64,000 nt of DNA from an uncultured bacterium (GTDB lineage: Bacteria > Bacillota > Negativicutes > Acidaminococcales > Acidaminococcaceae): contig CAJMQS010000002.1 of NCBI GenBank assembly GCA_905215645.1, positions 65,186 through 129,185 of the forward strand, written 5' to 3'. The translations under genes and the position numbers were made by a program. This document shows positions 6,804 through 48,262 of the stretch, piece after piece. Below the pieces are notes generated by a model, which saw only the letters and a program-made list of their open reading frames with translations, was not told where the DNA came from and made no database searches. How positions within the stretch are numbered: position 1 is the first letter of the stretch; each line of letters begins with the position of its first letter.

Positions 6804-6995
6804 TCAAAAATTCCTCGTATGGGTCCGCAGACGGTCCGCCAGGATATTGTAGTATACTTCCTTTTCCTGAATGGTCTTCCGAAGCTTACGGATCTGTTCT
6901 TCATTGGTGGCTTCTGCCAGCCGCTCGTTGAGTTCGACCAGTTCCAGCCGCAGCTGTCCCATCTTACTGGCAGCCATTTTGCTGATAAAGTCCAC
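6804..6995 (-). CDS. small hypothetical protein downstream of atpC
   Basis: ORF 6804..7022. Best start is GTG at 6995 after GAGGGGGGA with 6-nt spacing. Predicted coiled coil. Confidence 0.35.
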   Translation of the reverse strand: MDFISKMAASKMGQLRLELVELNERLAEATNEEQIRKLRKTIQEKEVYYNILADRLRTHTRNF

Positions 6996-38144: not shown

Positions 38145-38200
38145 AACAAACAATCCGTCAAAGCTCTTCAATGTCGGCAGAGTTTTGACGGATTATTTGT
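38145..38200. terminator. long-stem bidirectional terminator hairpin
   Basis: Inverted repeat ACAAACAATCCGTCAAAG ... TTTTGACGGATTATTTGT (18 bp arms, 2 mismatches). Sits between convergent genes. Confidence 0.75.
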
Positions 38201-38240
38201 TTATATGATAAAGGAGACTTGATTGCAAAATAAGTCAGAG

Positions 38241-40175
38241 TCACTTATCATTCTCATCCATATTTTCCAGTAATTTTCCAGACTTAATGAGTCCATACGC
38301 TTTTTGGATATCTTCCTGTATAGGGCGCAACCCCTCTAGTGTCGGGATTATACTGCGAATCGTATCGTATGCTTTCTGTGTATATCTGCCCAACCTCACA
38401 TTCCCCCTCAAATCCACAGCCTGTGCTGCATAAAGTGCTTCCATGCCCACAAGATACCGTAGATTATCGACCAGGTGCAGAGCTTTCGTTGTAACAAGAG
38501 GCAAGTTGCTGGCGTGATCTTCAATATAGCCTTCGATAGCAAAAAAATCAACAGAGGAAGGCGTTATGAGGAATCGATTTTCCGCATCTAAAGCAGAAAA
38601 AGCATCCTGAATCTGGGAATACCCATAGGATTCTCCATTTCTCGGTGCTAAAAAGCGGGTTAGACCTGTAAAATCAGGGTCTGCCATTTTTATCATGCGG
38701 TAATTAATCGTCCTGGACAGATGCCCCAAAGCGATAGAAAGCATCTCCACGGCTACAGCCAAGGAAGTCGTTTCAAAGTTGGATGTTACATACAGTTCCT
38801 GGGTTTCCGGGATAATACAAGGATTATCAGACGGTGAATTAATCTGGATTGCAAGGAACTTCTTAACCACTTCCAACGCATCTGTCACCGTTCCTGTAAT
38901 GGTAAAGCCTCCCCGGAAACTCAGGGAATCCTGAAGCGCTCGTTTGGAGTCCTTATCATACAGATAGCTGTCTTCCAAAAATTTCCGGCAACGGGCAGCA
39001 CACTTTTTCTGTCCTGGAAGCCCTCTCAGAGTATTGACATCCTGGCGCATGGCCTCGATGTTACCATTCAACCCTTCATAATCCAGACAATAAACCAAAT
39101 CAGACATAAAAAGTAAATCTTCAACTTCCTTTACCAAGATGGCTGTTGTACCTTCCCCCTGAGAATTGGAAAGCATAACCGTATGGGCATCTTTCAGCTG
39201 CCAATGATAAGGTTCCAGTCCTTCCTGTTCCATGGCCTCTCTGGCGCTTGTCTGCTGTCCCTTATAGTATACCTGGTTTTCTCCTGCAAAAGCCATCCCG
39301 ATATGGGTAATGGTCGTAATATCAGCTTCCCCAACTGATCCACGCCGGGGAACGCAAGGAGTAATTCCACGGTTCAGGAATTCTTTATATAAGTCAACCA
39401 GTTCGTCACTTGCACAAGAAGCCCCGATAAGCAGCGTATTCAGTCGGATGGCCATCATAGCTCGTACTTCTTCTATCGTATTGTAAGGTGGATATCCCAA
39501 TGCATGACTATAAATGACTTTTCTGTTTTCTTTTTCGATAAGGTTTTCTTTTACATCTCTGTCTTTATTCCACCCAACGCCTCGATTATACCCATAGATT
39601 GGCTTCCCATCATGGGCCAACCGTTCCATCGTCTCGCGGCCTCGTTTTACCCGGTTCCATGCTTCTGGTTCAATAGCTACAGGATATCCTTCATAGGCAA
39701 TGAGGTTCAAATCATGAAGCGTAAGATTATGCCCATTTAAAAGAATTGGTTCCATTCTCTGACTCCTTTCCACTATTTCAATTGTTTGTCTCGTCGTATC
39801 CAGCCTGACGGTATCTCCCCTTCGCACTTTTCTGTAAAAATAAGGATCCACCCTATCCACCATAGGGACACCCATGATGATTGCAGTGGAAACCAATACC
39901 GTATCCGGTTCTTCTACAATAAAAGCCCGCGGAGCCGTTCCATGCTTTTCCAATTGATAGAGCCCGTCCATCTGGACAACAGAGCTACCTTTGCCACCCG
40001 GAAATACCAGTATCTTATCTTTGATGCTGATTCCATTAAGACAGTGATCTCGTTCCATAACTACACCGTCTTCAGGACGCACATGATAAAAAAGAATTTG
40101 ATCTGAGGAAATAAGGATTTCACCCTCAGCCGTACCTTTGGCTATTTCTCTGCACGCAAACACATTCATCATCAT
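38241..40175 (-). CDS. fusion protein: aconitase-X small 'swivel' subunit (DUF126) plus HAL/PAL-family lyase-like domain lacking the MIO triad
   Basis: N-terminal ~135 aa carry KILVFPGGKGSSV...PRAFIV (AcnX swivel signature). The rest keeps the HAL fold (GSVG..., QDSLSFRG, SDNPC, EGYIEDHASN), but the Ala-Ser-Gly MIO precursor reads Glu-Ala-Asp. Start after GGGAAAGG. Overlaps the upstream AcnX-L gene by ~4-10 nt. Confidence 0.65.
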   Translation of the reverse strand: MMMNVFACREIAKGTAEGEILISSDQILFYHVRPEDGVVMERDHCLNGISIKDKILVFPGGKGSSVVQMDGLYQLEKHGTAPRAFIVEEPDTVLVSTAIIMGVPMVDRVDPYFYRKVRRGDTVRLDTTRQTIEIVERSQRMEPILLNGHNLTLHDLNLIAYEGYPVAIEPEAWNRVKRGRETMERLAHDGKPIYGYNRGVGWNKDRDVKENLIEKENRKVIYSHALGYPPYNTIEEVRAMMAIRLNTLLIGASCASDELVDLYKEFLNRGITPCVPRRGSVGEADITTITHIGMAFAGENQVYYKGQQTSAREAMEQEGLEPYHWQLKDAHTVMLSNSQGEGTTAILVKEVEDLLFMSDLVYCLDYEGLNGNIEAMRQDVNTLRGLPGQKKCAARCRKFLEDSYLYDKDSKRALQDSLSFRGGFTITGTVTDALEVVKKFLAIQINSPSDNPCIIPETQELYVTSNFETTSLAVAVEMLSIALGHLSRTINYRMIKMADPDFTGLTRFLAPRNGESYGYSQIQDAFSALDAENRFLITPSSVDFFAIEGYIEDHASNLPLVTTKALHLVDNLRYLVGMEALYAAQAVDLRGNVRLGRYTQKAYDTIRSIIPTLEGLRPIQEDIQKAYGLIKSGKLLENMDENDK

Positions 40176-41395
40176 CCACATACCTTTCCCAAAATAGCCT
40201 CATAAATACATTGTTCCACATCCTGAACCGTCAGTGTCACACCTGCACTCGTCATATAATAGGCTGCTTTAGGCGAATCTGTAACACCTAACAAGCCTTT
40301 GAGAAAATGCCAGCAATTGACTTCATCCACACAAGTATGAGGAATTAACTTACCACCCAATCGCTGGATCTGGGCCTGCAGGCCATTTTTATCTGCCTGT
40401 TCAATGACTTCAACGGAAGTCAGGATATAAATGGGGACAGCCGCTGGCTTAGTAAGCAGACGACCTACCCGTTCCACCTGGGAATACGTATAATGCGGAC
40501 AGCCCAAGATGCAGAAAGATATTTTTTGGCCGGATACTGGATGCTCTTTGGCTCGCAGATCATCCAAATCACCTTGTGTTATCCTAACCGTACGTAGCGG
40601 AGCTTGATTTCCAAAAGCATCCTTTTCATCTCGCACCAAAGGAGTCACCCCTGGCACGGCATAAATATCATAATTGCCAGAAACATTTAAAGAAGCCCCT
40701 AAAGCAATCAGTGCTTCCACAGGAATCAATTGAGGCAAGCCGAAGAAAACTGGATTTCCTCGTCCTATTTTCTTTCCAAGCATTCCTAACAGAGCAAAAT
40801 CTCCCTCTTTCTCTACCCTGGCATCTACTTCAACCGCTACGGTCCCAAATCGGTTCTTTTCAAAGAGCATCCCATATTCTGGCACGCATCCAGTGATGGC
40901 CGCACATAAAGCACTGGCAGCACTTTCTCGATTGGTTTTTGCTCCCAGGACGGCGTTCACGAAAATTGTTGCACTAGTTTCAGAGAATGCACACACTTCA
41001 TTTTTTCTCGGCTTGTTGCTGTATAGGTAAGGAGTACAACAATAAGTCATCGTAGCACCAAGTTCTCTATACACTTGATCTACCCGTTCCATATGAGTCT
41101 TTGCTGTATCCGATAGGATCGACGCAAATGTGCCCACAGAGTATCCTGGATTGACCGTTGGAGAGAGCCTGCAGACTGCTCCGGCCGACAAAAGACGGCT
41201 GGCAAACCATAAATCCGCCTCCTGTGCACTCAGTGAAACATGTGCTTTTTGGATAGGGACCATACGAGGTGCATCAAAGCATTTAGCAATTCCGACCTGG
41301 ATTTCCATGGCAAGGGCTACGCCCTTACCGTAAACACCATCCAGCATTTTTTGCTGCTCATCGGACAGGATCATTCCTCCAACCTCCCTGTTCAA
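40172..41395 (-). CDS. aconitase-X catalytic (large) subunit, DUF521/AcnX family
   Basis: N-terminal LSDEQQKMLDGVYGKGVALAMEIQV motif typical of AcnX large subunits. 407 aa. Start overlaps the stop of the upstream gene (ATGA). Confidence 0.6.
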   Translation of the reverse strand: MNREVGGMILSDEQQKMLDGVYGKGVALAMEIQVGIAKCFDAPRMVPIQKAHVSLSAQEADLWFASRLLSAGAVCRLSPTVNPGYSVGTFASILSDTAKTHMERVDQVYRELGATMTYCCTPYLYSNKPRKNEVCAFSETSATIFVNAVLGAKTNRESAASALCAAITGCVPEYGMLFEKNRFGTVAVEVDARVEKEGDFALLGMLGKKIGRGNPVFFGLPQLIPVEALIALGASLNVSGNYDIYAVPGVTPLVRDEKDAFGNQAPLRTVRITQGDLDDLRAKEHPVSGQKISFCILGCPHYTYSQVERVGRLLTKPAAVPIYILTSVEVIEQADKNGLQAQIQRLGGKLIPHTCVDEVNCWHFLKGLLGVTDSPKAAYYMTSAGVTLTVQDVEQCIYEAILGKVCG

Positions 41396-42312
41396 TTATG
41401 CTTATCCACAGAAAGGTTCCCCGCTTCCTTATCATATCCAGAGTAAAACCCTCTTCCCGATTTCATGCCCAATTGGCCTCGCTCAATCATTTCTTTTAGT
41501 TTTGCGGGAGGTTTATCCCGTTCTTCTCCACTTGCCTCATAATACGATATTTCGATATTATAGATTGTATCGAGTCCAATAAGGTCCATAAGCTGGAATG
41601 GGCCGATATTGGTATTCCATTCCATTTTCCAGCCACGATCAAACTCTGCTGGATCCACATATCCATCAGCCCAAAGATGGAGACATTCCCGTTTGACAGC
41701 ACGCCATACACGATTGATTGAATAGCCTTTAATTTCTTTTTCAGTAATAACTGGTTCGAACCCCAATGTGTGATAATGGGCTATAGCCGCTTTCTTTGTT
41801 TTTTCTGAAGTGCTGGCATTCCACATCATTTCAAGATAATTATTGCGGATCGGATCATCATGATCAACGGAAAAGGTACACTTCCTGCGTTCCGGAGAAA
41901 CACGTGCATAAATATCACTCATAAGCAATGATGAAGTATTGGAATTGAGCAAACATCCAGGTGGACAAATTTTATCCAGCTGTTCAAATATATCTTGTTT
42001 CAAAGCTAATTTTTCAGGGACATTCTCCACAACAAGTTCTGCATCCTGACAGGCTTCTTCCAGACTCCTTGCATAACGGATACGGTTCTTTACCCCATTG
42101 GCTTCTTCTGCATTCAGTCTGCCTTCCTGGATAAAGTAAGTCAGCCATTTCTCCACCTTTGCCTGACAAGTCAAAATAGATTTTTCGGTCCGACTGTAGC
42201 CCGTAACTTGTTTTCCATACAAAGCATTCCGAAAAGCAATCATGGAACCTTGCGTTCCAATTCCCACAATCGTTACATTTTTAATTTTATCAACTCCAAT
42301 AGGTATTGCCAT
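41392..42312 (-). CDS. 3-hydroxyacyl-CoA dehydrogenase-family oxidoreductase (3HCDH / L-carnitine dehydrogenase-like)
   Basis: Rossmann N-terminus (VTIVGIGTQGSMIA) and C-terminal GPFQLMDLIGLD motif of the 3HCDH family. Strong RBS. Confidence 0.7.
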   Translation of the reverse strand: MAIPIGVDKIKNVTIVGIGTQGSMIAFRNALYGKQVTGYSRTEKSILTCQAKVEKWLTYFIQEGRLNAEEANGVKNRIRYARSLEEACQDAELVVENVPEKLALKQDIFEQLDKICPPGCLLNSNTSSLLMSDIYARVSPERRKCTFSVDHDDPIRNNYLEMMWNASTSEKTKKAAIAHYHTLGFEPVITEKEIKGYSINRVWRAVKRECLHLWADGYVDPAEFDRGWKMEWNTNIGPFQLMDLIGLDTIYNIEISYYEASGEERDKPPAKLKEMIERGQLGMKSGRGFYSGYDKEAGNLSVDKHN

Positions 42313-42360
42313 AAATCTTCATCCTTTCCTTCCTGAACCTGTAAATAAATACTTATTAAA

Positions 42361-42903
42361 TTAAAAAGTCCTTTCGATGATATTTCCATCGGCCGGGATT
42401 GCTATGTAGCGGACTTTTGTATTTTCTACAAGTTCTCCATAAAAAGCAATGTAATAGGGACGATAGATGGAACGCAGCTGTAAAACCTCCAAGGTGACAT
42501 AACTTCCAATTTGTCGTCTGATCATCCGTCCAGCCAATCTTTTGGCATTTTCAATCAGCTTGTCCTGGGGAATTTCTGTCGTTTGCACCTGTGCCGGATC
42601 TGTAATTTGCAGAGATTGCGTCTTTATTGGTTTTTCTAAATAAGCTGGCGTTCCTCTGGTTCCTTCTGCCAGCATGAGGATTTTCTGTTTCCGGGGAAGA
42701 GATTCCTTTTGGGTAAAGATTTTCCGTAGAAAAGTGTCCATATATGTCATTTCAAAAGTAATTTCCTTACTTTCGATATACATCAATTTCAAGTTTATTT
42801 TCTTTTTCCCCAGAAGAAGGCGCCCCAGGAAATTGCCTCTTTTCTCGGCCACTTCCATAGCTTCTTCTTCGTTCATCGTCTTGGGTACCACTTGTATTTT
42901 CAT
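42361..42903 (-). CDS. hypothetical protein (no recognisable family)
   Basis: 180-aa ORF with GGGGGAG RBS, inside the operon. Confidence 0.45.
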   Translation of the reverse strand: MKIQVVPKTMNEEEAMEVAEKRGNFLGRLLLGKKKINLKLMYIESKEITFEMTYMDTFLRKIFTQKESLPRKQKILMLAEGTRGTPAYLEKPIKTQSLQITDPAQVQTTEIPQDKLIENAKRLAGRMIRRQIGSYVTLEVLQLRSIYRPYYIAFYGELVENTKVRYIAIPADGNIIERTF

Positions 42904-42933
42904 ATATCTCCCCCTGTTAGGAATTTTCTCTCC

Positions 42934-44577
42934 TCAGGCTTTTCTTTTGCTGAATTCCCGTACTTCAAACCAGTAGCGGGCGAATACACCAAATGTGATC
43001 AGCATGGCAATGCCCGGTGCCAAAATACCTACAAGAGCATCGACCTGATGGACCATGCCATAACCGAAGATGATCGCCAAAACAGCATAGAGAGCGACCA
43101 AAGCTCCATCTACACCGAACCATTCCACCGGCTCAATCTGCTGTTCTCCAGAGGAACCAACAGAGTCATCACAATATACTTTTCCAAATCGGTTGCCAAT
43201 CACATAGGTGATAAAAGAAATAGGCAAGGCAATGAGGAGAGCATCCACCTTTCCTCCCAGGATATCAATGGAAATCGGATAATAATTAAAGTAAATCCAA
43301 GATAGAGAGCCAAAAATCATGCTGGACAAGCCACCCACATCTGTTTTTCTGGAATCTGAAAGGATTGCACCCAATACCGGAACAAAAAGGCCACACATAG
43401 ACAAACTGTTGATGAAAAGGAATGCATCATACACAAGGGGAAAGCTGAACGCCGTTCCGAGTCCGATGATACCGAATATAATACAGCTGATTCTTGTAAT
43501 GTTGATACTTTGTCTGTCCGACAGAGGATGTTTACGATAGACATTGATGATGTCCCGGGATACAATTTCTCCTCCAATCAAGAAATACGAATCGATTGTA
43601 GAAATAATGGCACCCATGATTCCGAAAACAAAAAGGCCTCTTAGCACAACCGGTAAATTAGAAAGGACCAGCTGCACATAGGCGACTTCCGGCTGGATTT
43701 CCAGTCCAGGATGGATCGTACGGATAAGCATTGCCGTAGTGATCAGAACCATGTCGAAAGAAAGCCAGATGGAGAAACACATCAGCATAGCCCGTTTTCC
43801 CGTACGAGGTGAATTAGCTGCGGTAAAGCGCTGATAAAAAGATGGATCCTTATATACATTGATACACAATACGACAAGGCAGATAGCCCGTCCAACTGGA
43901 GTCCCGCCCAATGGGGTCAACATTTGAGGAGCAACTTGGCTTAATACCTGGTTGATACCTGCAAATCCTCCTACTCCAAAGTAAACTTGGGGAAAAGCGG
44001 CGCAGACAGATGTAATCATCAGAAAAAAGAAAATCATATCCGTTGCAGCTACACCCATAAGTCCGCCTAAACAAGTGATACCAGTGGAAATAATAACCAC
44101 AGCAGCTGCAACCAAAAATTTATTTGCATTCCAGGCAGCCACGCCCACATAGCCAGTCGCTGCGATTTCTGCAATAGAAAGACATGATACAACGAGGATA
44201 ACAGCTCCAATCAAAGAAGCGGTTCTTCCATAATATCGATTGATCAGTTCCGTCATTGTCGTATTCACTTTTACGGAAATACGAGGTGCTACCCAAAGTG
44301 CCAGAGGAAAGCGGACCAGATGAGCACAAATGGACCAAATAAAGAAAGCTGAGACACCCATCGTCGTTGCATAGCCAATGGTCCCAATGACACCAGCCCC
44401 TCCGTACCAGGATGCTACAAGCGTCCCGACTGCCAGAGACCAGGGAATCGACTTATTTGCTTGATAGAAACTATCCATATTCCGAGAAGTTTTGCTAAAA
44501 TGTTTTCCTACTAGGAATATGCCGATGACACACAACAGAACGGTAAGATTGTCAAGAAACGTTAACATACCCTTCAC
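42934..44577 (-). CDS. sodium:solute symporter (SSS family)
   Basis: 547 aa, ~13 TM, SSS-type topology and motifs. Confidence 0.75.
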   Translation of the reverse strand: MKGMLTFLDNLTVLLCVIGIFLVGKHFSKTSRNMDSFYQANKSIPWSLAVGTLVASWYGGAGVIGTIGYATTMGVSAFFIWSICAHLVRFPLALWVAPRISVKVNTTMTELINRYYGRTASLIGAVILVVSCLSIAEIAATGYVGVAAWNANKFLVAAAVVIISTGITCLGGLMGVAATDMIFFFLMITSVCAAFPQVYFGVGGFAGINQVLSQVAPQMLTPLGGTPVGRAICLVVLCINVYKDPSFYQRFTAANSPRTGKRAMLMCFSIWLSFDMVLITTAMLIRTIHPGLEIQPEVAYVQLVLSNLPVVLRGLFVFGIMGAIISTIDSYFLIGGEIVSRDIINVYRKHPLSDRQSINITRISCIIFGIIGLGTAFSFPLVYDAFLFINSLSMCGLFVPVLGAILSDSRKTDVGGLSSMIFGSLSWIYFNYYPISIDILGGKVDALLIALPISFITYVIGNRFGKVYCDDSVGSSGEQQIEPVEWFGVDGALVALYAVLAIIFGYGMVHQVDALVGILAPGIAMLITFGVFARYWFEVREFSKRKA

Positions 44578-44585
44578 TTCCTTTT

Positions 44586-46112
44586 CTAAAATTGCAGTTT
44601 ACCTACGACGGTTTCCACCACATCTATATATTTTCTCTCTTTGATTTGAGCAGACACACTTTCAATCAAGGGAGTAAGCGGAGCATCTGTTTCCAAGACA
44701 GGAACAACTTGTCGTAAAAGCTGATATACCTTCCCTGTAGCAGAAGATGGAGCAAGCATGTCATAGCAATCAAGTGCCTGCCCATCACAGATCAATTCAA
44801 TGGCAATGATATAGCTCCCCATTTGTATTAAATCGTACGCTTTTTTTGCTGCATTATATCCCATACTGATATAATCTTCTTGGTTCGCACATGTAGTTAA
44901 ATTATCCACCACAGCTGGATGAGAAAGGATTCTCATTTCTCCCAGCAGACCTGCAGCAGTATATTGGATCATCATAAGGCCATCATTATATTCCGCATTC
45001 TTGTTTAAGAAAGCAGGAAGTTCACTGACAAGACGATTCAATAGCCTATCGATACGGCTTGCAGTCATTTTACATAAATCGGTCATTGCGATTGCAAGGA
45101 AATCAGATGCCATTCCCAGATAAGAACCATCTGCATTACAACCCATCAAAGCAACAGCTTTCCCGTTATTTTCTTCAAAAATCAAAGGATTATCCACCGA
45201 AGAATTCAATTCAATGGCCAAAGACTGCAATCCATCTTTGACCGCTTTTTTTACGGCCCCATGCAGTTGGGGAATACAACGGATGGACAATGCATCCTGC
45301 ACACGATGGCCACGATATTTTTCTACAATCTCACTGTCCTGCAAAATGGCCCGCACGTTACTGGCAGTCCTGACTTGATCCACATGTGGCCGCGCTTCCA
45401 TAATACGGTCATCCATAGCCATCAAAGTCCCTTTGAGCACTTCCAGGCTAAAGGCACCGCTGATATCTGCTGTCAACGCCAGAGTTACTGCATCATACAG
45501 TGCAAGTGCAGCAAAAGCAGTTACAGAAGTCGTTCCAGAAACAATAGTCAATCCCTCTTTGGAAGAAAGAACAATTGGCTCAAGTCCAGCCTGAAACAAG
45601 GCTTCTTCCCCACTTAACAGTTTTCCCTTGTACCAAGCTTTTCCTTCCCCAATAAGGACCATACCAATGTGGGCTTCAAGAGAAATATATCCAACGGAGC
45701 CATGTCCTGGAACTCTTGGAACAACGTTCCGATTTAACATTTCTTTTAAAAGTTCCAGTGTTTCCAATCTGATTCCCGTATGTCCAGATCCAAAATGCAA
45801 CAGCATTACAAACATCATAGCTCTGGTACATTCTTCATTGATTGGCTCTCCCACAGCACAGGTATGGGCAAGGATATGATTCCTCTGGATATGGATCCGG
45901 TCTTCTTCCGGAATGAATTTTCTCCAATTGTCGCCCAATCCTGTCGTCACACCATAAATTGGAATTCCTCCTTTGCTGAATTCATCTACAAAATCTCGGC
46001 ATTTTTGAACTCGTTGGATATATTCATCTGAAAATGCAACTTGACTGTGATATCTTGCCACAGAAACTACATCTTCCAATGTATTCTTTCCATCCAGTAT
46101 AATGATTTTCAT
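44586..46112 (-). CDS. HAL/PAL-family (aromatic amino-acid lyase fold) protein lacking the MIO-forming Ala-Ser-Gly triad
   Basis: Conserved HAL blocks (GHGSVG..., QDALSIRCIPQLHGA, VDNPL, NQEDYISMG), but the MIO tripeptide position reads Tyr-Ile-Ser. The ORF-track start at 46136 is a TTG. ATG at ~46112 (MKIIILDGK) follows GAAAGGAA. Confidence 0.7.
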   Translation of the reverse strand: MKIIILDGKNTLEDVVSVARYHSQVAFSDEYIQRVQKCRDFVDEFSKGGIPIYGVTTGLGDNWRKFIPEEDRIHIQRNHILAHTCAVGEPINEECTRAMMFVMLLHFGSGHTGIRLETLELLKEMLNRNVVPRVPGHGSVGYISLEAHIGMVLIGEGKAWYKGKLLSGEEALFQAGLEPIVLSSKEGLTIVSGTTSVTAFAALALYDAVTLALTADISGAFSLEVLKGTLMAMDDRIMEARPHVDQVRTASNVRAILQDSEIVEKYRGHRVQDALSIRCIPQLHGAVKKAVKDGLQSLAIELNSSVDNPLIFEENNGKAVALMGCNADGSYLGMASDFLAIAMTDLCKMTASRIDRLLNRLVSELPAFLNKNAEYNDGLMMIQYTAAGLLGEMRILSHPAVVDNLTTCANQEDYISMGYNAAKKAYDLIQMGSYIIAIELICDGQALDCYDMLAPSSATGKVYQLLRQVVPVLETDAPLTPLIESVSAQIKERKYIDVVETVVGKLQF

Positions 46113-46169
46113 CTTCTTATTCCTTTCTCTTATCAAATCATCTATGAAAGTCTATCTTTATAAATTTAT

Positions 46170-46185
46170 TGCAAATACCTTGCCA
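46170..46185 (-). promoter_or_regulatory. sigma-54 (-24/-12) promoter
   Basis: Minus-sense TGGCAAGGTATTTGCA gives GG-N10-GC with TGGCA / TTGCA elements, ~57 nt upstream of the HAL-like gene ATG. Confidence 0.7.
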
Positions 46186-46229
46186 AAATCATGAAATGTG
46201 TTTCAGAGTTAAAAAATATATCTTTTATT

Positions 46230-46247
46230 TTCTGGTTTATACCAGAA
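46230..46247. promoter_or_regulatory. palindrome TTCTGGTTTATACCAGAA, candidate enhancer (UAS) site for the sigma-54 activator
   Basis: Perfect 6-bp arms, about 45 bp upstream of the -24 element. Confidence 0.3.
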
Positions 46248-46328
46248 ATCTACAAATAATGTCATTTCAAAGTCCTTTATTATGAAAAAAGCAGTTGCCC
46301 ATCACCATTTTAGAGAATGCCTTATAGC

Positions 46329-46370
46329 AAAAAAATCTGGCTGCCAAAATCTCTGGCGCCAGATTTTTTA
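46329..46370 (-). terminator. terminator of the sigma-54 activator gene
   Basis: AATCTGGC...GCCAGATT hairpin, including the TCTGGCGCCAGA palindrome, followed by a T7 run on the minus strand. Confidence 0.6.
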
Positions 46371-48053
46371 TTCTTTTTCTTCCTTAATTCCAAACTTTCG
46401 TAAATGATATTGAAAATTCTGCCGTGACAAATGCAATTTAGCTGCTGCCTTTGTCACATTTTTCCCACAAGCCTGGTACGTTTCCCAAAGGATACTTTTT
46501 TCATATTCATTGACAAGTTCTGTCAGCCCCTTTTCATTTTTATTAGGAACCTCCGTAACAAGAGGTTGGGGATGTTGTTGCAACACGGAATCTTTTTTAG
46601 CATGACGAAGGAAGTAATAAGGAAAATCACTCTCATCAAGGGTCCCATCTTTAGAAAGACTCATTGCATAGCCCAGAATGTGGAAAAGTTCCCGTACATT
46701 CCCGGGCCACTGATGCTCTCTAAGCCGTTGCCAAAATCCGGGCGTAATTTTCCGAATAGGCATTCCAGCATACTGAGGATAATTATCAATAAAGAAATGG
46801 ACAAGCTCGGGCAGATCCTCCAGTCGATTCCGCAAAGGGGGGATTTCAATAATAACAGAAGCCAGGCGAAAGAACAAATCCTGCCGCATCTTTCCATTCT
46901 GGCTCATTACATATGCGTCCTCATTGGTTGAAGAAATGACCCGGACATCAACAGGAATATACTTTGTACTGCCAATGCGCTGCAGAGTATGCTCCTGCAG
47001 AACTCTGAGCAATTTCGCCTGCATAGCAGAGCTCATTGAATTGACTTCATCCAAAAAAAGTGTTCCATGATTTGCTGCTTCAATCAGTCCGATTTGATCC
47101 GAACTTCCAGTAAAAGCCCCCTTCACTGTCCCGAAAAGCATACTCTCTATTAAAGATTCTGGAAAAGCTGCACAGTTGACAGCAATGAATTTTTCTCGGC
47201 GTCGAGAGCTGTATTGATGGATGCTCTGTGCAAATATCTCCTTCCCGCTGCCCGTTTCTCCTTGTATTAAAATATTGATATCCCGTTCTGCCATCCGCTT
47301 TGCTAACTGGATGGTATTTTGCAAAGCTCCTGAAGAACCAATCAAATCATCGAATGTGTAGTGGACTTCCTTGCTCACCGCAAATCGTTCCGTCATATGC
47401 CGAGTCAGGATTTCTTCTATTTGCTTCAATTCAGAAATCTGAGATTTGACTGCGTTCATATCCTGCTCAACAGAAACAGCTCCTAGAATAGACCCATCTT
47501 CTCGGAATACAGGATATCCTTCTGTCACTGTCATCAGATCCTTGCCCGTTGTCGATTTGTACCGATCATATCGATGATGGACGTTACTCAGATTCCTAAG
47601 GACTGTTAAAATAGCACTATAATTTGGGTCAACATGAAAAATATCCAACAAATTTTGTCCTTCGACAGATTCCTTAAGAGAGATTCCCAGAAGATGCTTG
47701 CTTGCTTTATTGAAAAATTGAATGGTTCCATCTTGGGCATATAGCTGAATCACATTGGGAGATTGATCAAGAACTGCTTCCATGAGTTTTTCCCGGACCG
47801 ACTCTTGCCGAAGCAATAAACAGATTCCGTAAAATACTTGAAAAGATATATACGAAAAGCGTCTTTCAAGCCACTGGACTTCTCCCGCTTCTGGTCGGAA
47901 TACCATACTGCTCACTTCAGAAAGTTTCTGACCGATTAAATTTCTGCAAACCATTCTGATTTCCGAATTTTCTCCTAATTTACTGCCAAATTCTACTTGT
48001 CGTACAAATCCTCCTTCACTCAAAAGTAATGCGATATCAAAAATCACCTCCAT
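46368..48053 (-). CDS. sigma-54-dependent transcriptional activator (sensor/PAS + AAA+ + Fis-type HTH)
   Basis: GETGSGKE Walker A, GAFTGS sigma-54 contact motif, arginine finger region, C-terminal HTH (AAKLHLSRQNFQYHLRKFGI). Start after GGGAGGGAG RBS. Confidence 0.85.
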   Translation of the reverse strand: MEVIFDIALLLSEGGFVRQVEFGSKLGENSEIRMVCRNLIGQKLSEVSSMVFRPEAGEVQWLERRFSYISFQVFYGICLLLRQESVREKLMEAVLDQSPNVIQLYAQDGTIQFFNKASKHLLGISLKESVEGQNLLDIFHVDPNYSAILTVLRNLSNVHHRYDRYKSTTGKDLMTVTEGYPVFREDGSILGAVSVEQDMNAVKSQISELKQIEEILTRHMTERFAVSKEVHYTFDDLIGSSGALQNTIQLAKRMAERDINILIQGETGSGKEIFAQSIHQYSSRRREKFIAVNCAAFPESLIESMLFGTVKGAFTGSSDQIGLIEAANHGTLFLDEVNSMSSAMQAKLLRVLQEHTLQRIGSTKYIPVDVRVISSTNEDAYVMSQNGKMRQDLFFRLASVIIEIPPLRNRLEDLPELVHFFIDNYPQYAGMPIRKITPGFWQRLREHQWPGNVRELFHILGYAMSLSKDGTLDESDFPYYFLRHAKKDSVLQQHPQPLVTEVPNKNEKGLTELVNEYEKSILWETYQACGKNVTKAAAKLHLSRQNFQYHLRKFGIKEEKE

Positions 48054-48262
48054 CGCTATTCTCCCTCCCTGCTTTTATCCTTTGCTTAGTATACCATGGA
48101 ATTCCGCAATGAAAAAAGCTGTATTCTATTACGGCATTCTCCAGTAGCAATGAATCCCCCTTTGTTCATCTTTTTTTCTCTTTTCTGCCCCACTTTTTCT
48201 TCAACTTCGTCTTATGATGTATACTCAGTATTGTATGCATCAAAGAAAGGCAGGAAAAAGGA

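Follow-up and report, generated by a model that had tools for sequence, protein, structure and literature searches.

Can a protein with the histidine ammonia-lyase (HAL) fold act as a lyase when the Ala-Ser-Gly precursor of the family's 4-methylideneimidazol-5-one (MIO) cofactor is missing, and which substrate would such an enzyme take? This question is raised by a gene, here termed HAL-A, located at positions 44586 to 46112 on the minus strand of a 64-kb stretch of DNA from an uncultured member of the Acidaminococcaceae (contig CAJMQS010000002.1; the whole stretch is referred to as the window). Pfam and phmmer searches, alignments and an AlphaFold (AF2) model identify HAL-A as an MIO-less HAL-fold lyase of 508 residues that harbors a GSVG-Y-x-x-L-E-x-H loop, the hallmark of what we designate type A. 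As judged from its residue pattern and by analogy with characterized homologs, HAL-A is probably a cytoplasmic, MIO-independent C–N lyase that takes trimethylamine off an imported α-N,N,N-trimethyl amino acid, most likely a histidine-derived betaine.

The HAL-A ATG is at position 46112, with the sequence AAGGA just 5′ of it, and the plus-strand translation of the same interval is broken by stops. The Pfam Lyase_aromatic match of the protein is full-length (2e-152, residues 11 to 468), and all four conserved HAL blocks quoted in a preliminary description of this DNA (GHGSVG, QDALSIRCIPQLHGA, VDNPL and NQEDYISMG) are present in the minus-strand open reading frame. An identical protein record from an uncultured Acidaminococcus, WP_297862154.1, is named "histidine ammonia-lyase," and the A. 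massiliensis ortholog is 92% identical. The closest solved relatives of HAL-A are indeed histidine ammonia-lyases, from Thermoplasma (PDB 7tqr; phmmer E value of 1e-96) and P. putida (1b8f; 4e-78), with the ergothionase 6s7j much more remote (7e-56). The AF2 monomer has a predicted TM (pTM) score of 0.84 and, in Foldseek comparisons, gives TM scores of 0.87 to HAL structures and 0.81 to 0.83 to ergothionase. HAL-A shows 37% identity to HutH and 29% to the T. denticola ergothionase, TdETL (6s7j), but it misses the NCBIfam HutH equivalog cutoffs (474.1 versus 539.15 bits for TIGR01225 and 481.1 versus 524 bits for NF006871).

At the MIO site, HAL-A contains a remnant loop, GSVGYISLEAH (45669 to 45701, minus strand), which is three residues shorter than GSVGASGDLAPLAH. 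Both HMMER and MAFFT alignments place Tyr142 of HAL-A opposite Ala142 of P. putida HAL, with three residues deleted. The preliminary description had read this site as Tyr-Ile-Ser in place of Ala-Ser-Gly; the loss of the triad stands, but the replacement is not in register, as the loop is shortened (GSVG-Y---ISLE-AH compared with GSVG-ASGDLAPL-AH). The alignment to P. putida HAL reveals no ASG, TSG or SSG in register anywhere in HAL-A, so the triad had not been misplaced in that earlier reading. Residues that pack against or assist the MIO are also replaced, N195S, Y280L and F329A (P. putida HAL numbering), such that positions 195, 280 and 329 are Ser, Leu and Ala in HAL-A and Asn, Tyr and Phe in HutH. 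Because HAL-A has no triad, lacks three loop residues and carries replacements at the MIO-packing positions, it cannot, on the evidence of its sequence, form MIO, in agreement with the earlier statement that it cannot use the canonical MIO mechanism. A GFP-like alternative chromophore formed from Gly-Tyr-Ile was considered and rejected on chemical grounds, there being no Gly after the Tyr.

The rest of the active site is retained. In P. putida numbering, positions 53, 83, 277, 283, 313, 382 and 414 of HAL-A are Tyr, His, Gln, Arg, Asn, Met and Glu, the same as in HutH, and thus the catalytic Tyr53, the carboxylate binders Q277, R283 and N313 and the imidazole binders H83, M382 and E414 are all kept. 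Tyr53 (codon at 45954 to 45956, minus strand) aligns with the conserved base of the HAL and ergothionase families, which in these homologs is stated to abstract the β-proton. Within HAL-A's own numbering, the GSVGY..LE.H loop together with Y53, H83, Q272, R278, N308 and E412 is preserved in 18 orthologs (64 to 81% identity), and the same residues are invariant in 21 distant members of the lineage (34 to 46% identity), a sequence pattern indicating that these positions are under selection. The HAL-A gene is real and, because the 18 orthologs and most of the best database matches keep the Tyr loop, neither chance nor decay explains its MIO-site feature.

To describe the relatives of HAL-A we refer to the Tyr-loop group (GSVG-Y) as type A and to TdETL-like proteins, whose loop reads E-G/A-D and lacks one residue relative to HAL, as type B. 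The Tyr loop, whose Tyr is invariant in the lineage, is found in about 113 of the 120 best database matches of HAL-A, the remainder looking like pattern mis-hits. With sequences reduced to representatives at 50% identity, the GSVG-Y loop is found in many distinct clusters, and more distant representatives have ASG. When searched against the PDB, a type-A profile scores HutH/HAL at 565 bits compared with 375 bits for TdETL. In a neighbor-joining tree, which was built without bootstrap support, TdETL-like sequences form a deep separate clade and most type-A sequences are located beside the MIO-bearing HutH group, with a few Tyr-loop sequences branching apart near the base of that group. HAL-A lies outside the TdETL clade, that of the characterized trimethylammonia-lyases, and its own clade is separate, with no characterized member found in it. 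By sequence, type A is a distinct and widespread MIO-less lineage, whose annotation everywhere reads "histidine ammonia-lyase." The lineage is frequent in Blautia, with single sequences present on 539 and 725 contigs, and is also found in Oscillibacter, Acidaminococcus, C. symbiosum and acetogens.

MIO-less HAL-fold trimethylammonia-lyases have been established previously, namely ergothionase (from Burkholderia and from T. denticola, 6s7j), Swoo_3913, which acts on histidine betaine, SO_3057, which acts on ergothioneine, and SO_3299, which acts on N(π)-methyl histidine betaine. These enzymes need no MIO, trimethylamine being a good leaving group, and the trimethylammonium group is required. 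The concept of an MIO-less lyase is already known, and HAL-A adds a separate lineage to it. Of the two options offered in the preliminary description, that of a lyase that acts without MIO on a substrate carrying a good leaving group fits these precedents as well as the residue pattern of HAL-A and the BCCT and hut neighbors of its relatives.

Comparison with TdETL, and with the related Burkholderia sp. HME13 enzyme, shows that HAL-A shares the HAL fold without MIO, the catalytic Tyr, the Gln/Arg/Asn and His/Glu residues and the replacements of Asn195 by Ser and Tyr280 by Leu, and the same chemistry, base-catalyzed elimination of trimethylamine, would be expected of it. However, there are differences between the two proteins. 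The TdETL loop (Glu-Gly-Asp) is one residue shorter than that of HAL, whereas the HAL-A loop is three residues shorter and contains the invariant Tyr. In TdETL, Lys384 binds the ergothioneine thiolate and is essential, and the histidine-betaine enzyme has Asn at this position. The corresponding residue is Tyr in HAL-A and in every type-A sequence, as it is in the ordinary HutH 7tqr. HAL-A also has Met for Gly382 of TdETL and Ala for Phe329, and type A is HutH-like at Met382 and Tyr386. The true ergothionase relative in the HAL-A operon is a second protein, HAL-B (see below), though it has Asp at Lys384.

The closest match to the probable activity of HAL-A is, by analogy, probably provided by Swoo_3913 of Shewanella woodyi and SO_3299 of S. 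oneidensis, which are MIO-less, have urocanate-type products and contain a neutral residue at Lys384. These proteins are found in the periplasm, where flavocytochrome reductases couple them to respiration, whereas no leader was noted in HAL-A, which is encoded in a σ54 and transporter operon of a fermentative Firmicute. In addition, the Swoo_3913 loop, GSVGLSDILLASH, is of the TdETL-type (type-B) length, while HAL-A belongs to the Tyr-loop lineage. HutH (P. putida 1b8f and Thermoplasma 7tqr) is nearest to HAL-A in sequence and fold, with identical imidazole and carboxylate pocket residues. As noted, HAL-A differs from it by the missing Ala-Ser-Gly, the three-residue deletion, the three replaced MIO-packing residues and the scores below the equivalog cutoffs, and the lineage also differs in having betaine-transporter neighbors.

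Based on these homologs, a mechanism for HAL-A can be proposed. The substrate would enter the cell via a sodium:solute symporter (SSF) and its 180-residue partner, both encoded beside HAL-A, and expression would be driven from a σ54 promoter under a dedicated PAS-domain activator. In the active site, Gln277, Arg283 and Asn313 (P. putida HAL numbering) would hold the carboxylate and His83, Met382 and Glu414 the imidazole, with Tyr53, on a mobile lid loop, abstracting the β-proton. The quaternary ammonium would then leave without electrophilic activation, from a cavity that the three-residue deletion in the MIO loop and the shrunken MIO-packing residues (N195S, Y280L and F329A) may create, and the invariant Tyr142 could make a cation–π contact. 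The reaction would yield urocanate, either plain or substituted. Hercynine is, we infer, the first substrate candidate, followed by related compounds with a modified ring, such as ergothioneine, because C. symbiosum contains a separate TdETL-like lyase with Lys384 and because type A keeps the HutH-like Met382 and Tyr386.

The genomic contexts of HAL-A relatives provide further information on the substrate. We collected 80 loci from species genomes and six from assemblies and clustered the neighboring open reading frames; counts are given over 82 loci, and activators were counted within ±9 kb. ASG was absent from every HAL-A relative examined in this set. A σ54 activator is present in 47 of the 82 loci, a BCCT betaine transporter in 31, and an SSF transporter together with the 180-residue protein, which belongs to no known family, in 34. 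BCCT and the SSF pair are interchangeable in position beside orthologous lyases. In Sporomusa termitida the whole unit consists of an activator, a lyase that is 73% identical to HAL-A and a BCCT. Other neighbors are a Cys-rich 2×[4Fe-4S] protein (21 loci), aconitase X (AcnX; 12), a xanthine-oxidase-family molybdenum (Mo) enzyme (about 10), urocanase, HutU (9), HutI (8) and glutamate formiminotransferase (6). In Brevibacillus (L054:8497-16976) and Aneurinibacillus (L059:106-8558) the operon reads MFS, type-A lyase, AraC, hutG, hutU, hutI, and thus the type-A lyase stands in the place of HutH in these hut operons. In Lachnospiraceae, type-A genes are located between hutU/hutI/ftcD and a xanthine-oxidase-family enzyme. 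Because of these transporter and hut contexts, the gene neighborhoods argue for an imported quaternary-ammonium substrate and, over the entire lineage, for the formation of urocanate.

In the C. symbiosum locus (L087:6264-17150), a type-A and a type-B lyase are neighbors, and a separate BCCT accompanies each. One set comprises a σ54 activator, a BCCT, a type-A lyase that is 47% identical to HAL-A and an 85-residue protein; the other comprises a type-B lyase that has Lys384 and is 44% identical to TdETL, a BCCT, an OCD/mu-crystallin-family protein and a LysR regulator. Ergothionase activity has been reported in C. symbiosum, and this organism and Blautia producta are those cited for ergothioneine catabolism in the gut. 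The TdETL-like gene is the obvious ergothionase of C. symbiosum and, because this Lys384-bearing lyase has its own BCCT, the type-A gene is a separate system.

Several observations weigh against a histidine-derived betaine as the HAL-A substrate, or against urocanate as its product. The AF2 monomer has predicted local distance difference test (pLDDT) values below 50 exactly in the active-site loops of HAL-A, and the geometry of the pocket is therefore not checkable in this model. The hut-linked type-A members, from which urocanate is mainly argued, are only 48 to 50% identical to HAL-A, and within the HAL-A orthogroup (at least 64% identity) the Sedimentibacter and Blautia loci are the only ones with HutU in the vicinity. 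A tblastn search of the 64-kb window found no hut genes, BCCT, MttB, Mo enzyme or ferredoxin-type (Fer4) protein, and of these the missing hut genes, BCCT and Mo enzyme bear on the assignment. Biochemical data for a type-A member were found nowhere in the accessible literature. Finally, a plain route from hercynine to urocanate and on through Hut does not account for the AcnX and dehydrogenase genes that accompany HAL-A in its operon.

This last point is met by a different substrate. HAL-A may be an amine or trimethylamine lyase for a nonimidazole betaine, of proline or hydroxyproline (with ring opening) or of tyrosine or tryptophan, from which the enoate would be hydrated by AcnX and oxidized by the 3-hydroxyacid dehydrogenase, in a β-oxidation-like sequence on the free acid. 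The operon in the window couples its lyases to AcnX and a 3HCDH-family enzyme, the chemistry of AcnX links 3-hydroxy acids and 2-enoates, its solved relatives are Thermococcus AcnX and cis-3-hydroxyproline dehydratase, and the dehydrogenase is nearest to a non-CoA diketoreductase. The best NCBIfam match of the activator is PrdR-like, though below the cutoff, and the SSF transporter is PutP/PanF-like, both hints of a proline-type betaine. Moreover, Blautia clusters have Ldh_2 in place of 3HCDH and additional MttB-family methyltransferases, known partners of proline-type betaine and hydroxyproline metabolism. However, His83, Met382 and Glu414, which would have no role with proline betaine, are invariant across type A, hut genes recur beside type-A lyases, and AcnX with 3HCDH is found in only about 12 of the 82 loci, where it tracks the HAL-B paralog with Asp or Asn rather than HAL-A. 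We consider such a substrate unlikely. Similarly doubtful, and slightly more so, is that HAL-A is an ergothionase proper, a functional analog of TdETL from a second lineage that would convert ergothioneine to thiourocanate and trimethylamine. The Mo enzymes are the reason to consider it. Reductive C–S bond cleavage in ergothioneine catabolism, with thiourocanate desulfurized, has been reported for a gut xanthine-oxidase homolog, and in Sedimentibacter-type loci HAL-A orthologs (64 to 66% identity) are found directly after a xanthine-oxidase-family Mo enzyme, together with BCCT and HutU; the Lachnospiraceae arrangement described above points the same way. These neighbors keep ergothioneine among the candidate substrates of HAL-A. 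Yet the thiolate-binding Lys384 is Tyr in every type-A sequence, Gly382 is replaced by Met, C. symbiosum has its Lys384 enzyme besides the type-A gene, the Oscillibacter Mo enzyme adjoins a type-B lyase that has kept Lys384, and identity between the Mo enzymes that adjoin type-A lyases and those that adjoin type-B lyases is only about 30%.

The preliminary description had also allowed for a pseudoenzyme, and HAL-A might accordingly be dead or a structural partner, either a subunit with HAL-B or AcnX or a ligand sensor, given the loss of the family-defining cofactor and the second HAL-fold gene in the same operon. This is highly improbable: Tyr53 and all residues that bind the substrate are unchanged in relatives from 35% to 92% identical, the lyase is in many genomes the sole enzyme of an activator–lyase–transporter unit, and MIO-less relatives are efficient enzymes. 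A trimethylamine-releasing lyase for a histidine-derived betaine, with hercynine ahead of ergothioneine, accounts best for the retained imidazole pocket and for the BCCT and hut neighbors of the lineage.

The operon itself is preceded by a gene, on the same strand, for a σ54-dependent activator with PAS, AAA+ and HTH domains (46368 to 48053, minus strand; Pfam Sigma54_activat, 2.7e-63, and PAS, 3e-7). HAL-A is the first gene after a σ54 (−24/−12) promoter, TGGCAAGGTATTTGCA, at 46170 to 46185 on the minus strand, 58 nucleotides upstream of the HAL-A ATG, as the preliminary description had it. Exact matches to TGGCA-N6-TTGCW number two in the 64 kb, compared with 0.43 expected; the second, TGGCAGCCATTTTGCT, is at window positions 6968 to 6983 on the plus strand. 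Between the promoter and the activator gene, a scan for terminators called none on the minus strand; inspection of the sequence shows a hairpin with a long loop and a T-run after it, for which no claim is made.

Five genes are tightly packed downstream of HAL-A on the same strand. The first encodes the SSF transporter, the presumed substrate importer (42934 to 44577, minus strand; Pfam SSF, 3.3e-16), and the second its soluble 180-residue partner (42361 to 42903, minus strand), which has no Pfam or NCBIfam match. In related loci this partner has the same count as SSF, usually adjoins it and is not seen where BCCT replaces SSF. These are followed by a 3-hydroxyacyl-CoA dehydrogenase-family dehydrogenase (41392 to 42312, minus strand; Pfam 3HCDH_N, 3.6e-32, and 3HCDH, 1e-18), which is below all equivalog cutoffs and whose best solved relative is the non-CoA diketoreductase 4dyd, and by the large, catalytic subunit of AcnX (40172 to 41395, minus strand; Pfam AcnX, 5.6e-103). 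The latter is closer to Thermococcus AcnX 7cnr (2e-56) than to the bacterial cis-3-hydroxyproline dehydratase (6e-27). Its cysteines in CTPY and GCPH align with cysteines of 7cnr, and a third, in HTC, aligns with the 7cnr cysteine in "dsC."

The last gene (38241 to 40181, minus strand) encodes a 646-residue fusion of the AcnX swivel, or small-subunit, domain (Pfam AcnX_swivel, 6.6e-25) with the second HAL-fold lyase, HAL-B (Lyase_aromatic, 1.6e-119). The second HAL-fold gene noted earlier for the operon is present, as a fusion protein. HAL-B is 49% identical to TdETL (E value of 1.9e-158), has a GSVG-EAD loop and contains Asp in place of Lys384. Two parts of the earlier account need revision here. 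The two paralogs are not alike, HAL-B being a true ergothionase-family protein and HAL-A belonging to another lineage, and the presence of two in one operon is not unusual, as several per cluster, up to four, are common in related loci. The swivel–HAL-B fusion recurs in an 80-member protein cluster, and its two parts are encoded by separate neighboring genes in Oscillibacter. The fusion links AcnX functionally to an MIO-less lyase, and within the locus it is this ergothionase-like paralog with its AcnX domain that is the more surprising. A literature search found no link between aconitase X and ammonia-lyases. Across related loci, AcnX and 3HCDH are found with type-B lyases that have Asp or Asn at Lys384, and Mo enzymes with those that have Lys. 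Because AcnX enzymes interconvert 3-hydroxy acids and 2-enoates, the combination of AcnX and the dehydrogenase suggests, by analogy, hydration and then oxidation of the lyase product. A role for AcnX as a thiourocanate desulfhydrase was also considered and was dropped after the report that the desulfurizing enzyme is a xanthine-oxidase homolog. The block containing the regulator and the operon (window positions 38200 to 48100, 10 kb) has a G+C content of 38 to 45%, compared with 52 to 58% in the flanks and, because it is below that of the flanks, this low-GC island suggests horizontal acquisition.

A broader and more tentative proposal is that type A is a second, independently evolved MIO-less HAL-fold lineage of gut and sediment Firmicutes that, with the AcnX-fused ergothionase-like lyase, would feed a new free-acid route (AcnX hydratase, then 3-hydroxyacid dehydrogenase) for enoates from histidine-type betaines and would be a bacterial source of trimethylamine that has been overlooked. 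Trimethylamine N-oxide derives from the trimethylamine that gut bacteria produce. If type A does cleave histidine-type betaines, the HAL fold has lost its cofactor at least twice with the rest of the active site kept, a whole enzyme class is misassigned by annotation pipelines, and the genetic capacity of the gut for the degradation of ergothioneine and hercynine, and for trimethylamine formation, is underestimated. A 2026 analysis concluded that ergothionase is confined to few genera, using BLAST with one Burkholderia sequence. For the downstream pathway, the AcnX fusion provides a concrete handle.

Three further features were observed in the related loci. The three-subunit xanthine-oxidase-family Mo enzymes found beside MIO-less lyases (L006, L029-L031, L050, L063, L064, L076, L077 and L084) form three groups, with about 30% identity between groups, and these groups may differ in the reaction catalyzed. 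The Cys-rich protein found near type-A lyases in 21 of the 82 loci (for instance, L044:9012-9956 and L006:11564-12571) is about 320 residues long and is absent from the window; it has a C-terminal 2×[4Fe-4S] ferredoxin domain, and its N-terminal region of about 250 residues is without a family match. Lastly, a Blautia cluster (L001:113-13030) contains two type-A lyases, two pairs of AcnX large and small subunits, MttB-family methyltransferases, an Ldh_2 reductase, thioredoxin and thioredoxin reductase, with a urocanase gene about 9 kb from the cluster.

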